Assembly (NCBI GenBank): GCA_044356295.1
Contig: JBIKWN010000025.1
Span: 1 to 32,784, forward strand
Source of the DNA: Bdellovibrionota bacterium
GTDB taxonomy: Bacteria > Bdellovibrionota_C > UBA2361 > JBIKWN01
DNA: 32,784 bases
Reading direction: 5' to 3'
Below are positions 11,282 through 32,784 of this stretch, one piece after another. A program made the position numbers and the translations under genes. Numbering within the stretch: position 1 is the first letter of the stretch; each line of letters opens with the position of its first letter. The notes beneath the pieces were generated by a model, which saw only the letters and a program-made list of their open reading frames with translations, had not been told where the DNA came from and made no database searches.

Positions 11282-12715
11282 CTATTGAATTGCCCTATCA
11301 AGGATATTCTGTCTTCTTGTTAAAAGGTCAATATAGGATTGATTAATTTTTCGGGTAACATGTCCTGGTCTAAAATCCTTTTCAACATTAAATGCACTGG
11401 GCATACGGGCGATAACTGGATCAGCAAGACCCCATATATCAAGAATTATTTTTTTCGACCCAGCAAAGTAGCCAGATATACCTAAGGTATCTATCAGTGT
11501 CACAGGATCTTTGGAATTTTTTATTACAATTCCTCTAGCAACCTCAAACGGATATTCATGATCAATATAGATCTTGGCAAGATTAGGTAAACCATAAGCT
11601 TGAAAGTAATATGCGCCCTCATTAGCAAGGCCATTTTTCTTAACCAGACTATTTGCATTTGAAGGTAATCCTGGTGTTTTAAAGACACAACATGCCAATG
11701 CAGATACGAACAGAAGCGTCGTGATAGAAGCTGATTTTTTGAATTCGGTAATTAATAGCAGGATAGATGTTAAGCAGATCGCTGTTAGGAAACGACCAGT
11801 CATGAAATCGCCCCCTATATACATAAGATATAGTATTGTGATTACAGTAGAAGCAAGAACTGTATAAAAAACTTTCCACGTTTTTTTTAGTATGGATACT
11901 AAAATTGCAAGGATTGGAGCAATGACAAGAATTGGATCAGTCTGAAATGCATCAAGTAAATAAAGTTTTGTTTGATATAGCCTGATAGGAAGCGAAGGAA
12001 GTAAGGACATCTTTGCAACAGCAGTATTGGGTATTATTGATCCATAGTAGCAATATGAAAAAATACTCCAATACAATACAGGAACGAATGTTGGAATTAA
12101 TACAGTTATGATGCCTTCTTTTAAAGATTGGAAAGATACTGATTGAAAACGTTTATCTCGTAGAACAGAAAAGGCGACTAGGGGTAGAACAACAAGGACT
12201 AGATCATGTCGTGTCATTAATAAGAATCCAAGGCACCAATACTGAAGGATTGTATGGGAATATTTTTTTGATGATTTAAAAAAGAAATACAGCAGTATTA
12301 AAAAATGAATTAGACCAGTTTCTAAACCTGATGTTGTAAAAGCAATAAGAGTTGAACTGGTACAGAAGCACAGTAAAAAAAGTATCAAAATATTTGGTGT
12401 TTTTGCGAAAAGTTTTGTTGCAATGATCAGAAATAGTAAAAAAATGGTAAAGCTTAGCGCCAGGCTAAATATAGGTGGTGATAAGAGCTGTATTGGCATA
12501 ACAAGCAGCAAGAGTGTCCAAAGCGGTGATGTGAAAACTTGAACACGGTACCCTGGATTGAAAACAAGACCATTGCCGTTCCAAAAATTATCGATTGTTC
12601 TAAATATCATGAATGCATCATCGATTAAGTGGGCATTCGAAACGACCAGCCATACTGTCCATACAAGGGACATGAGTGCAGCTATATTAATGATTACTAT
12701 ACTAGTACGCTTCAC
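11282..12715 (-). CDS. GT-C fold glycosyltransferase, AftB-like (arabinofuranosyltransferase-related family)
   Basis: DDAFMIFRTIDN..GNGLVFNPGYRVQVFTSPLW, SGLET, TRHD, YYG..PNT..AK, GGDFM.GRF, D..GLADP and RPGH motifs. Confidence 0.8.
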   Translation of the reverse strand: MKRTSIVIINIAALMSLVWTVWLVVSNAHLIDDAFMIFRTIDNFWNGNGLVFNPGYRVQVFTSPLWTLLLLVMPIQLLSPPIFSLALSFTIFLLFLIIATKLFAKTPNILILFLLCFCTSSTLIAFTTSGLETGLIHFLILLYFFFKSSKKYSHTILQYWCLGFLLMTRHDLVLVVLPLVAFSVLRDKRFQSVSFQSLKEGIITVLIPTFVPVLYWSIFSYCYYGSIIPNTAVAKMSLLPSLPIRLYQTKLYLLDAFQTDPILVIAPILAILVSILKKTWKVFYTVLASTVITILYLMYIGGDFMTGRFLTAICLTSILLLITEFKKSASITTLLFVSALACCVFKTPGLPSNANSLVKKNGLANEGAYYFQAYGLPNLAKIYIDHEYPFEVARGIVIKNSKDPVTLIDTLGISGYFAGSKKIILDIWGLADPVIARMPSAFNVEKDFRPGHVTRKINQSYIDLLTRRQNILDRAIQ

Positions 12716-12824
12716 AAGCTTTCTTTACGTGGCTCTGATAATTGGTATTTAAACAGTATGAACCATGATGATACCGAAGTAACAGATCAGAAAATCATAT
12801 AGGTTTCTAATGTAGTTATATCTT

Positions 12825-13340
12825 CTATGTCCTGCCAAAGCCTATTCGTTGAATCTTAGGTGGAATAGTTGGCGACATAATTTCACGAATAGCTTCGAAC
12901 ACTATCTTAAACTGATGATCGTACCGCGATTCTAGTTCTTGAAGTTTTTCTGCGAGATCTTCATGTGAAGCAATTAATTGCCGTAATTTTACAAATGTAC
13001 GCATAATTTCAATATTTACTTGAACAGCTCGTTCAGAATTTAGAATAGAAGAAAGCATAGCTACCCCTTGCTCTGTGAAAACATACGGCGGATATCGTCT
13101 TCCCGTCCTCCCAGTTGAGGTCACAAATTGTGACCTCAAAAGCTCGTGTTCTTCAGTAGTTAGCTGGAACATGAAATCTTCTGGGAATCTGTTTATGTTA
13201 CGTTTTACAGCTTGAACGAAAGCCTTAGTTTGGACCTGATATAGTATTGCCAGGTCTTCGTCCAGCATGACTTTGTGCCCTCGAATGATATAAATGAAAT
13301 TTTCAATCTGTTTGCGAATAATAGTCTTTTGATCTGCCAT
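12825..13340 (-). CDS. ORF6N domain-containing DNA-binding protein
   Basis: IRG.KVMLD.DLA.LY.V.T..QAVKRN..RFPEDFMFQLT..LRSQFVTS..PYVFTEQGVAMLSS.L.S.RA..VNI.IMR.FV; AGGAG ribosome-binding site. Confidence 0.93.
   Translation of the reverse strand: MADQKTIIRKQIENFIYIIRGHKVMLDEDLAILYQVQTKAFVQAVKRNINRFPEDFMFQLTTEEHELLRSQFVTSTGRTGRRYPPYVFTEQGVAMLSSILNSERAVQVNIEIMRTFVKLRQLIASHEDLAEKLQELESRYDHQFKIVFEAIREIMSPTIPPKIQRIGFGRT
13115..13139. repeat. Perfect 25-bp palindrome TTGAGGTCACAA-A-TTGTGACCTCAA inside the ORF6N gene
   Basis: 12-bp arms are exact reverse complements around a 1-nt centre; minus strand encodes LRSQFVTS. Confidence 0.95.
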
Positions 13341-13469
13341 CTATTCTCCTAAACAAATGAATCGAGGAAATCCTTGAAAAGTTTCCAGGATATATACCAA
13401 TAAACGCTAGTATATTTTTCGAGTTAATAAGGCTATTATCTTACAAACGATATACTCTAAAACTACCGA

Positions 13470-14717
13470 ATGAAGTCTTCAATCAGTAATAAACAAGATT
13501 CTTCATCAAAGCCTCGTCGGATACGATCGATTGTCTTACTTCCTTTTGGAATCTCGTTTTTCTTTTTCCTTATTATCTTAGTTGAAATCACCTGTGGATT
13601 CTTCATACAGGGCAATTACTTGAGCCCGAAAACAGAGGATTTTCAATCAAATCTTTACCGGTGGTTTTTCTCTGCTGATCCTCTGCTTGGGCATCGGGGC
13701 AGACCATACGTCGATTATAAAATGGGTCAGCGCCATAATAATTTAGGGCTGCGCGGCAAAGATGTCTCTTTAGTAAAGGATAGCAGTTCGTTTCGAGTCG
13801 GTATTTTTGGTGACTCACAGGTTTGGGGTTGGGCACTGGCTGATTCGTCAACTATTCCTGTTCATCTTGAGAAAGTATCAAAAGAGATGCGCATTACTCG
13901 CTCGAAAACAATTGAAGCTGTGAATTTTGGTGTTCCTGGGTATTCAATTGACCAAGAGTATCTTCAGTTTTTAATGTTTGCAGATACTTTAAAGCTTGAT
14001 GCTGCTGTTTTAGTTGTTTTCCTGACCAATGATCTTGGTGAAATTGTTACTGATAAAGCATGGGAAATGCCTCGCCCGCAAATATTGCCAAAAGTTGACG
14101 GCACAGTCGGATCAGTCGTACTTGAACATCCACCGTTATTTACTGGGGATGAAAAATTTTATGGTACGTATCTAGGGGATCTAATGTCTCTTGGCGCTGA
14201 ATCCTCGAACCCATTTATATTTAGCAACTTTTTAACTGTAGTAGCACAAAGAACAGTGAGTCCTGGAATTGCTCAATTTTTGTGTAATACATTTGTTAGA
14301 AAAGCATTCTGTGATTTTTATAATTCAAGTAATCAAGTTGAAATAATCAAGAATGCTTCCCCAATTGATAAACAACAAAAGATTGATTCATTCGGTCGTT
14401 ATGAAGCAATTCTTGATGCGTTTACCGTTGAAGCTTCGGTAAGAAAAATCCCACTTATAGTTGCAATCGTTCCACCAGTTGAAGGGTTGCAATCCTCTGA
14501 TTCTTATCAAAATTATTTAAAAATTCGTTCAATTATTAAATCAAGTAGCAATAGAGCTGTTATTGATATGCTCGAAGTCATTGACTCATTTAAAGTACAA
14601 CCATCCCACTATTCTCTTGATGGGTACCATTATAATTCTGCTTTTAATGCTGTGCTGTCTGTTGAAATAGCTAAAAAATTACCCTCCAGCTACTTCAAGG
14701 CGAAGAGAGGCTTTTGA
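13470..14717 (+). CDS. Membrane-anchored SGNH/GDSL hydrolase family protein
   Basis: FGDSQVWG block I, NFGVPGY block II, ND block III, DGYHYN block V; N-terminal TM. Confidence 0.88.
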   Translation: MKSSISNKQDSSSKPRRIRSIVLLPFGISFFFFLIILVEITCGFFIQGNYLSPKTEDFQSNLYRWFFSADPLLGHRGRPYVDYKMGQRHNNLGLRGKDVSLVKDSSSFRVGIFGDSQVWGWALADSSTIPVHLEKVSKEMRITRSKTIEAVNFGVPGYSIDQEYLQFLMFADTLKLDAAVLVVFLTNDLGEIVTDKAWEMPRPQILPKVDGTVGSVVLEHPPLFTGDEKFYGTYLGDLMSLGAESSNPFIFSNFLTVVAQRTVSPGIAQFLCNTFVRKAFCDFYNSSNQVEIIKNASPIDKQQKIDSFGRYEAILDAFTVEASVRKIPLIVAIVPPVEGLQSSDSYQNYLKIRSIIKSSSNRAVIDMLEVIDSFKVQPSHYSLDGYHYNSAFNAVLSVEIAKKLPSSYFKAKRGF

Positions 14718-32711: not shown

Positions 32712-32784
32712 CGTGACCTTGAGCGTAGGCGTGAGCGTGACCCAAAACTTTAAGGTCACGCTCACGCCAAAGCTCAAGGTCACG
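32712..32784. repeat. Hexamer-periodic inverted repeat (REP-like), 31-bp arms, 11-nt loop
   Basis: 32712-32742 matches the reverse complement of 32754-32784 at 29/31; runs to the window end. Confidence 0.9.

Follow-up and report, generated by a model that had tools for sequence, protein, structure and literature searches.

A conserved palindrome inside ORF6N genes and its putative recognition by the genes' own products

Some binding sites lie within the very gene that encodes their binder: the iterons of the lambda origin occur in gene O, parS in spo0J/parB, and the PurR operator in purR. Here we describe a perfect 25-bp palindrome in the middle of a gene of the ORF6N family, located on a stretch of 32,784 nt from a Bdellovibrionota bacterium (GenBank contig JBIKWN010000025.1, assembly GCA_044356295.1), which is called the window throughout. 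As in the three cases above, the site (here a putative one) resides in the coding sequence of its own binder, the codons of which are double-purposed. The known cases concern single genes, whereas the ORF6N palindrome is family-wide, recurs in more than 15 phyla, changes together with a helix of the protein, and is kept even where the gene is read in a different frame over the site.

The lambda and 434 repressors, dimeric helix-turn-helix repressors with palindromic operators, offer another comparison. The half-sites of the ORF6N palindrome are likewise about one helical turn apart, the recognition helix would use residues i and i+4, and the base preferences are known ones; the differences are that the putative ORF6N operator is situated not at the promoter but some 200 nt into the coding sequence, and that the fold matches of the protein are weak.

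By sequence, the protein encoded in the window is a clear member of Pfam PF10543 (ORF6N), of PADLOC family PDC-S05 and of PHROG families labelled "anti-repressor", entries that include neither an internal palindrome nor a DNA target. A search of the main texts in a literature collection found no description of an internal palindrome or a DNA target for ORF6N/PDC-S05. The class of ORF6N genes with an internal cognate palindrome is defined here and is not in print; the window gene belongs to it by its site as well as by its helix.

A possible link to phage defence brings in BstA and its aba element. In Owen et al. (2021; PMC8585504), aba is described as DNA-based, cognate to each BstA homologue and overlapping the bstA gene; its 63 bp begin in the promoter-proximal region and take in the initial 34 bp of bstA, with terminal direct CCCGCC repeats that are needed, and a direct interaction of aba with BstA is itself unproven there. 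The likeness consists in a protein of DNA-binding type whose own gene bears a short DNA element, cognate in aba and putatively so in ORF6N; compared with that account, the ORF6N element differs in being a 25–27-bp palindrome in mid-gene, without direct repeats of the aba type, in a gene that, judged from its immediate neighbours, is not in a prophage. A PADLOC scan of the window protein (E ≤ 0.01) returned PDC-S05 models only, the presence of a BstA model in the library being unverified. According to a preprint (bioRxiv 10.1101/2024.09.26.614923), a PDC-S05 member described as having a RhuM domain conferred on E. coli protection from T7, T5 and T4.

Conservation of the palindrome among ORF6N genes

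On the plus strand, the palindrome reads TTGAGGTCACAA-A-TTGTGACCTCAA, with two 12-nt arms (13115–13126 and 13128–13139) that are 100% complementary around a 1-nt spacer, as found with a repeat search. The pattern occurs once in the window, with up to three mismatches tolerated, and in none of 100 shuffles that preserve dinucleotides. The number of perfect 12+1+12 palindromes expected from base composition is 0.0032 for the window and 0.32 for the 2.96-Mb genome; the genome contains seven, of which four are housed in ORF6N genes or remnants. The initial annotation had stated that such arms are improbable by chance in 33 kb, which is borne out, and it had correctly written the codons over the site (on the coding strand TTG AGG TCA CAA TTT GTG ACC TCA A, for LRSQFVTS(T), residues 68–76). 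Its statement that LRSQFVTS is a recurring ORF6N motif also holds: the consensus of 15 homologues is LRSQIxTS.

Seven tblastn matches represent the homologues in the window's own genome. Within the phylum, 124 genomes were scanned with a codon-degenerate pattern anchored on the SQ and FTEQG codons, which matched in 36 genomes; an ORF6N match at E 1e-10 or better was present in 64 of the 124. With an alignment of 15 proteins as the query, the best 80 of 601 relatives were taken from genome contigs, named as more than 15 phyla, and the best 80 of 185 relatives from viral contigs. When anchored by tblastn, 183 loci yielded 189 segments, among which 149 stretches of 61 nt are distinct; for the covariation alignment, four mis-anchored ones were dropped, leaving 145.

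At the codons homologous to residues 68–76, at least 10 of the 12 arm pairs are retained in 130 of the 149 distinct stretches (12 pairs in 55, 11 in 52, 10 in 23), with 9 pairs in nine stretches and 8 or fewer in ten. The mean is 10.6 of 12 pairs, compared with 4.8–4.9 after synonymous resampling, in which each gene's own peptide was kept and codons were drawn 2000 times under uniform, pooled or own-gene codon usage; in 111–118 of the 149 genes, 0.1% or less of the 2000 resamplings attain the observed pairing. Among the ten low rows are alignment-gap register shifts (the L127/L128 type, L181 and L182:3035), members of a second subfamily (L005 and L006) and sites that have truly decayed (L042, L064 and L097/L103). 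The initial annotation had named a kept peptide with lost DNA symmetry, together with a lack of protein binding, as the outcome that would speak against dual-coding DNA; as regards symmetry, with 10.6 pairs on average, the 149 stretches came out the other way. On the sequence evidence, the symmetry is neither chance nor a by-product of the peptide.

Normalised synonymous entropy is 0.15–0.37 at L68, S70, Q71 and S75, against a mean of 0.94 (minimum 0.55) in the 67 other conserved columns, and silent sites are therefore saturated in the gene except at the palindrome. The codons used within the motif depart widely from usage elsewhere in the same genes: L68 is TTG in 117 of 130 (19% elsewhere), Q71 is CAA in 126 of 133 (51%), V73 is GTG in 79 of 81 (26%), and S75 is TCA in 113 of 121 (17%). 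Suppression of synonymous variation over the site, as anticipated in the initial annotation, is thus borne out.

In the covariation alignment, 92.5% of the cells pair, compared with 79.3% in column shuffles, and 202 cells carry changes on both sides, compared with 58.7 in shuffles, none of 500 shuffles being as high; in a control where the partner was slid by one to three columns, pairing is 22–44%. The inner cores found are TCACAA/TTGTGA, TCGCAA/TTGCGA, TGCCAA/TTGGCA, TCCCAA/TTGGGA, TTCCAA/TTGGAA and TACCAA/TTGGTA, and the outer pairs include AGG/CCT, AGA/TCT, AAA/TTT and AAG/CTT. In many of the compensatory changes, one arm is altered silently and the other so that an amino acid is exchanged (V/G/A at residue 73, T/I at 74, S/C/F/Y at 70). 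In L074, L100 and the second gene of L153, the arms are wholly different yet complementary. RNAalifold lists one pair more, the 13th, which is C-G in 62 rows and U-A in another 61 of the 145 but is absent in the window palindrome, and the innermost pair, 12/14, shows no covariation. The symmetry is thus preserved by compensatory changes in homologues, and the suppression of synonymous variation falls exactly at the palindrome, by which the notion of dual-coding DNA is strongly supported.

A selected nucleic-acid hairpin with a role in processing, stability, translation or replication, formed as a stem of 11–13 bp with a 3-nt loop in mRNA, antisense RNA or single-stranded DNA, would leave a similar record. 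Compensatory changes keep the pairing at 10 of the 12 positions, the 13th pair covaries, the lack of covariation at pair 12/14 is as expected for a triloop, the outer arms of the three genes just named were replaced wholesale and have stayed complementary, and the sense RNA folds at −18.9 kcal/mol (z −2.85). However, silent position 12, which belongs to the loop in that model, is A in 126 of 133 although 12/14 do not covary. The mismatches, counted over the 11 pairs listed by RNAalifold in the 145 rows, are not biased towards sense-strand wobble (A.C/C.A in about 40 cells against G.U/U.G in about 23, plus A.A, U.C and C.C), non-coding copies of the palindrome occur in promoter regions, and no Rfam 15 family matches the site within 12700–13500, two matches elsewhere in that range being at chance level (E 1.4 and 9.2). 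Moreover, the identity of the bases, beyond their pairing, is predicted by residues of a protein helix; because of these helix-base tests, the hairpin, favoured at first, was demoted, and we now deem it quite improbable compared with a double-stranded site read by the ORF6N protein.

Helix residues 39 and 43 and the bases of the site

Residues 39 and 43 of the predicted recognition helix are encoded outside the palindrome codons, residue 43 lying 25 codons upstream of the palindrome, and they nevertheless predict bases of the site. Over the 149 genes, the mutual information between residue 43 and pair 9/17 is 1.06 of 1.39 bits; the pair is A.T with Q43 (80 of 86), C.G with R43 (36 of 37) and K43 (5 of 6), and G.C with E43 (14 of 16). 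Position 6, the silent third base of codon 69, is G with K39 (62 of 66) and A with R39 (40 of 42), S39 (12 of 12) and G39 (12 of 16). The rule of K39 with G6 is upheld in all four strata of G+C content at third codon positions, and residue 39 is a better predictor of position 6 than of position 20, with which position 6 pairs and at which T or I is specified for residue 74. The window fits the rule (K39, Q43 and GGTCACAA), as do all six of the intact or near-intact paralogues in its genome. Close relatives may differ jointly in residue 43 and in the core, for example L031/L044 (86% identical elsewhere) and L117/L122 (83%).

The association was also examined with shared ancestry taken into account. 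On trees inferred with IQ-TREE in quick mode, from alignments from which the helix and motif columns had been removed, independent pairs across supported branches were counted: K39 with G6 gave 11 pairs (9.9 the same way, p ~0.002), Q43 with A9 six pairs (5.8, p ~0.03), R/K43 with C9 six pairs (5.7, p ~0.03) and E43 with G9 five pairs (4.9, p ~0.06), with none in the opposite direction in any of the tests. The FastTree version of the same four tests gave 10, 5, 5 and 4 pairs, again with none opposite.

Gln with A, Arg or Lys with G, and Glu with C are known amino-acid/base preferences. The reading residues stand at i and i+4, the bases they track are 3 bp apart, and the half-site centres are separated by about 11 bp; the pairings, the residue spacing and the half-site distance would together fit a symmetric dimer reading two successive major grooves.

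The same site also occurs under another reading frame. Two paralogues in the window's genome, C38 and C128, have EEVVAKCDHLKKL in place of LRSQFVTS; their DNA at the site is AGGTGGTCGCAA-A-ATGCGACCACCT, which MAFFT aligns with the others only via a 2-nt gap. ORF6N genes with the peptide EVVA(N/K)CDHL carry AGGTGGTCGCAA-N-xTGCGACCACCT, a palindrome one codon position out of phase with respect to the LRSQ type. Thirteen such genes in the phylum keep 10–12 of the 12 pairs, and the core TCGCA is present in all 35 phylum rows with E at residue 43, in both subfamilies. In metagenome and viral contigs, 79 of the 84 rows obtained with a nine-protein alignment are of the EVVA(N/K)CDHL type, the search patterns being the helix peptide and the site peptide themselves. 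In these 79 rows the palindrome has 12 of 12 pairs in 48, 11 in 20, 10 in nine and 9 in two; the mean of 11.4 pairs, where the observed value is the best palindrome within a 48-nt search range, compares with 7.0 from synonymous resampling. The helix KRL(N/K)E is accompanied by the inner site GGTCGCAA..TTGCGACC in EVVA(N/K)CDHL and in LRSQIATS genes alike: the same helix and the same inner site stand under two peptides, and it is therefore the DNA, and not the peptide, that is conserved.

A contact between residues 43 and 73 within the protein was considered as the cause of the link between helix and site and was rejected on two grounds: the link persists in the subfamily with a different peptide over the site, and residue 39 tracks the silent base better than it tracks residue 74.

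Further copies of the site and its probable role

In the window's genome, the C70 paralogue (66% identity) has the same arms as the window gene, the C125 paralogue has TTGAAGTCGCAA-A-TTGCGACCTCAA (11 of 12 pairs), and the C59 paralogue has TTGAGATCCCAA-A-TTGGGATCTCAA (12 of 12). The scan of this genome for other copies, proposed with the initial annotation, was positive for further ORF6N genes and remnants and negative elsewhere: no family-type site was found outside ORF6N genes or their remnants in the genome. Nor was there a dispersed regulon signal, the half-site GGTCACAA occurring 55 times genome-wide against about 73 expected.

In 641 kb of relatives' loci, 289 palindromes have at least 10 of 12 pairs, compared with 27 in shuffled sequence, and 209 of the 289 are inside ORF6N matches. 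Family-type copies outside any ORF6N frame are located 9–130 nt upstream in 11 of 80 genome loci and three of 80 viral loci, and one non-coding copy lies 38 nt downstream of the gene. When the copies in 16 loci with non-coding copies were compared with the helix of the adjacent gene, eight fitted in both halves, three in one half and five in none. The upstream copy obeys the helix rule in all three loci where the internal site is deviant (L042, where it has decayed, L088 and L096).

At L050, L076, L077, L082 and L117, the core of the upstream palindrome fits another helix type than that of the adjacent gene, and such misfitting cores may hint at cross-regulation between paralogues. ORF6N genes of the phylum often form tandem arrays of three to five diverged paralogues with differing site types (examples are G059:C17 1529–5163, G078:C271 38305–41942 and G090:C49 23571–26084).

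In our view, the palindrome is probably under selection as a double-stranded cognate site to which the gene's own product binds as a dimer, the arrangement probably being autoregulatory. A site within the gene that is bound by the protein itself had been among the suggestions of the initial annotation, and it finds support, at the level of sequence, in the rule for residues 39 and 43, in the second reading frame, in the upstream copies and in a half-site geometry that fits a dimeric helix-turn-helix protein. From these we infer physical binding, dimerisation and a regulatory effect along the following lines. ORF6N would form a symmetric dimer via its C-terminal helices, and the recognition helix of each subunit (residues 38–47) would enter one half-site, where K39 would read the G at position 6 and Q43 the A.T pair 9/17, the centres of the half-sites being about 11 bp, or one helical turn, apart. 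The site would be written into codons 68–76, which specify the end of a helix and a flexible loop, a part tolerant of many residues, so that protein and site would make one inseparable cassette whose specificity changes jointly. The most likely effect would be negative autoregulation, with the dimer sitting some 200 nt inside its own transcription unit, or on the upstream copy where one is present. Such autoregulation would be portable, since neither recombination nor transfer could part the site from the protein.

A number of observations weigh against a self-bound dimer site. Outer positions 1–4 and the 13th pair covary symmetrically, and no residue was found that reads them; a hairpin would be the simpler account of that part of the pattern. 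The helix codons are about 75 nt from the site, and because of this short separation the association between helix and site may in part be due to linkage or block recombination. After phylogenetic correction, the association of residue 43 comes down to five to six independent pairs. The rule has exceptions (6 of 86 for Q43, 1 of 37 for R43 and 2 of 16 for E43), and KRLNQ occurs with GGTTGCAA in three rows and KQLNQ with GGTCGCAA in one row. The fold matches of the model to winged-helix or MerR-like domains are weak (Z-scores of 3.3–6.8, below the level at which the tool is trusted). About half of the upstream copies misfit the helix of the adjacent gene and resemble sites for other paralogues. 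In the window there is no second copy near the promoter, only the internal one, and because of this, autoregulation here would act from inside the gene. Finally, contig C30 of the same genome has, around 1563, an ORF6N remnant that is decayed, with the helix-3 and FPxDF region deleted and the frame broken, and that retains a perfect 12+1+12 palindrome, CTGAGATGCCAA-A-TTGGCATCTCAG.

The persistence of a perfect palindrome in that remnant, together with the tight linkage of helix and site (~75 nt), is also what would be expected if the element had no function at all and template switching during replication had copied changes from arm to arm (quasi-palindrome correction), the helix-site association being mere linkage. 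Templated mutation at quasi-palindromes is an established mutational mechanism. However, it leaves the fixed silent central bases unexplained, as well as the fact that bases follow residues 39 and 43 according to amino-acid/base preferences; the same site is found under another reading frame and in separate non-coding copies; at L042, the decayed internal site is accompanied by an upstream copy that matches the helix; and the symmetry extends across more than 15 phyla despite saturated synonymous sites elsewhere in the gene. We regard a functionless origin as very improbable indeed, and selection for binding by the gene's own product as the better account.

The same binding could serve another purpose. 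The internal site could be a self-marker or decoy comparable to aba, holding or silencing a DNA-targeting anti-phage protein on its own encoding DNA, where private specificities would stop paralogues and foreign copies from exploiting each other. The window protein matches the candidate defence family PDC-S05 (E 6e-59), and helix and site switch jointly between close relatives. Restriction or DNA-methylase genes adjoin eight of the 80 genome loci, including one with the order hsdM-ORF6N-hsdS (L065). In the preprint cited above (bioRxiv 10.1101/2024.09.26.614923), a PDC-S05 member lowered the plating of both T7 and T5 on E. coli by a factor of about 1000. The N-terminal domain of BstA is KilA-N-like, and the bstA gene is overlapped by an immunity element that is DNA-based and cognate (PMC8585504). 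Against this, the PDC-S05 member tested there is described with a RhuM domain, so that it is not the short form found here, and aba as described there has a different anatomy (63 bp with terminal direct repeats, at the start of the gene). What protective role one site could play on a chromosome of 3 Mb is not obvious, the window gene stands among ordinary genes and, judged from its immediate neighbours, not in a prophage, and the promoter-proximal upstream copies are more operator-like. A self-marker thus appears rather unlikely to us, and an autoregulatory operator remains our preferred interpretation of the binding.

A wider picture can be offered as a tentative possibility. ORF6N/PDC-S05 could be a very large family of portable cassettes of a protein plus its address, in which a private, co-evolving, in-frame DNA tag is set by a helix code (at residue 43, Q for A.T, R/K for C.G and E for G.C; at residue 39, K for G) and dominates two reading frames. 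In the manner of aba, the tag could serve an anti-phage system to tell self from non-self or to silence itself, with the differing tags of tandemly arrayed paralogues and the foreign tags ahead of some genes wiring orthogonal or hierarchical circuits. The site gives a function-level handle on a very widespread family that is annotated only as "ORF6N" or "anti-repressor", without a known DNA target or mechanism: each member's gene spells out its predicted cognate site, and natural variation supplies a ready-made table of specificities, from helix residue to base pair. The family offers a clean natural case in which, within a protein-coding gene, codon choice and even the reading frame yield to selection at the DNA level. 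This bears on gene finding, on models of synonymous-site evolution, and on recoding or codon optimisation, as an optimised gene would lose the site. Should the family truly act against phages, the embedded site may reveal the means by which a defence protein encoded by one gene distinguishes its own DNA from that of others.

The host gene and its surroundings

The features of the gene are collected in Table 1.

Table 1. Coordinates, in the window, of the palindrome and of the ORF6N gene that contains it
Feature	Position	Strand	Basis or remark
Perfect 25-bp palindrome, proposed double-stranded binding site with two half-sites	13115..13139	.	Repeat search, homologue covariation
Codons 68–76 (LRSQFVTST) spelling the palindrome	13113..13139	-	End of predicted helix 62–71 and start of loop
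Intact ORF6N gene, 171 amino acids, ATG start; also PADLOC PDC-S05 match	12825..13340	-	Open reading frame and profile searches
Predicted recognition helix, residues 38–47 (TKAFVQAVKR)	13200..13229	-	AlphaFold and family statistics
K39 codon; Q43 codon	13224..13226; 13212..13214	-	Residues predicting palindrome bases 6 and 9/17
Predicted first helix of the helix-turn-helix, residues 27–34	13239..13262	-	AlphaFold
C-terminal long helices, residues 103–155; presumed dimerisation region	12876..13034	-	AlphaFold
Shine-Dalgarno-like AGGAG, 5 nt ahead of the ATG	13346..13350	-	Read from the sequence

Residues 16–99 of the window protein match Pfam PF10543 with E 6.5e-35 (119.7 bits, cut-off 27.8), and three models of the PADLOC candidate defence family PDC-S05 were matched, with E 6e-59, 2.6e-57 and 1.4e-38; PHROG "anti-repressor" families were matched as well. 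The AlphaFold model, made with a 15-sequence alignment, has a mean predicted local distance difference test score (pLDDT) of 71.5. Helices 27–34 and 38–47 form a helix-turn-helix in it, residues 39 and 43 being placed on the second of these after a short turn, and residues 73–79, the loop encoded from the palindrome region, have a pLDDT below 50. No solved structure was found by sequence search at E ≤ 1 or with Foldseek at E ≤ 0.001. A wide search with VIA-align gave only middling matches: 4ye7 (Z 6.7), Dachshund 1l8r (Z 5.9), Mbp1 1bm8 (Z 4.4) and MerR/Xis-type domains (Z 3.3–4.5).

The four neighbour genes encode a transglutaminase-like protein, an HTTM-domain protein and two proteins without a known family, and the window gene is one among ordinary genes and not in a prophage, as judged from these immediate neighbours only. 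On the strand of the gene, no sigma-70-like site was found at 13341–13470, where the promoter type of this organism may differ, and the promoter/terminator scan around the gene found no terminator. A DNA search of two genomes of the same genus (62% and 86% complete) matched the ORF6N part alone, at 66–70% identity and in other contexts, and is uninformative on presence or absence at this locus. A collection of cultured phages gave five matches, all of them unannotated records of uncultured faecal phages. In unrelated bacteria, lone ORF6N genes stand between housekeeping genes, such as carA/carB (L092) and purH/purD (L109), and also at L034 and L090.

The initial annotation had alternatively tied the site to mobility of this lone gene, the palindrome being a place of recombination or insertion through which the gene spreads. 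The family is indeed patchy, with several copies per genome and 55–66% identity across phyla, and in the C59 paralogue a miniature repeat element is inserted about 10 nt after the palindrome. However, no direct or inverted repeats beyond chance size (10–13 nt) flank the gene and no target duplication surrounds it, its G+C content (0.391) is that of the window (0.395), no recombinase gene adjoins it among the immediate neighbours, an integrase or transposase is a neighbour in three of 80 loci, and paralogues show no homology junction at the palindrome. The mobility proposal found no support for the window gene, and we find it barely plausible beside a binding site for the ORF6N protein.

The miniature repeat itself is palindromic, about 105–130 nt long, with short terminal inverted repeats and an internal hairpin rich in GTGACC/GTGAGC, and it occurs in dozens of copies in the genome (130 high-scoring segment pairs with blastn). 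One copy interrupts the C59 paralogue (L004, 245–372), and another is cut by the end of the window at 32712–32784, where its 36-nt arms are 89% complementary.

At 13470–13480 of the window, a palindrome with 10 of 12 pairs, TACCGAATGAAG-T-CTTCAATCAGTA, and the start codon of the divergent gene at 13470–14717 overlap; this palindrome is no better than chance level and does not belong to the ORF6N type.

Contigs of four DNA runs that match at the palindrome are contigs of other ORF6N genes. One variant contig of 238 nt has 11 differences, none of which falls within 13115–13139, where about one was expected, which is not significant. In runs X2 and X4, short assembly contigs start exactly inside the palindrome (window 13117–13139), as expected of assembler breaks, and ORF6N genes may often be split in metagenome assemblies.

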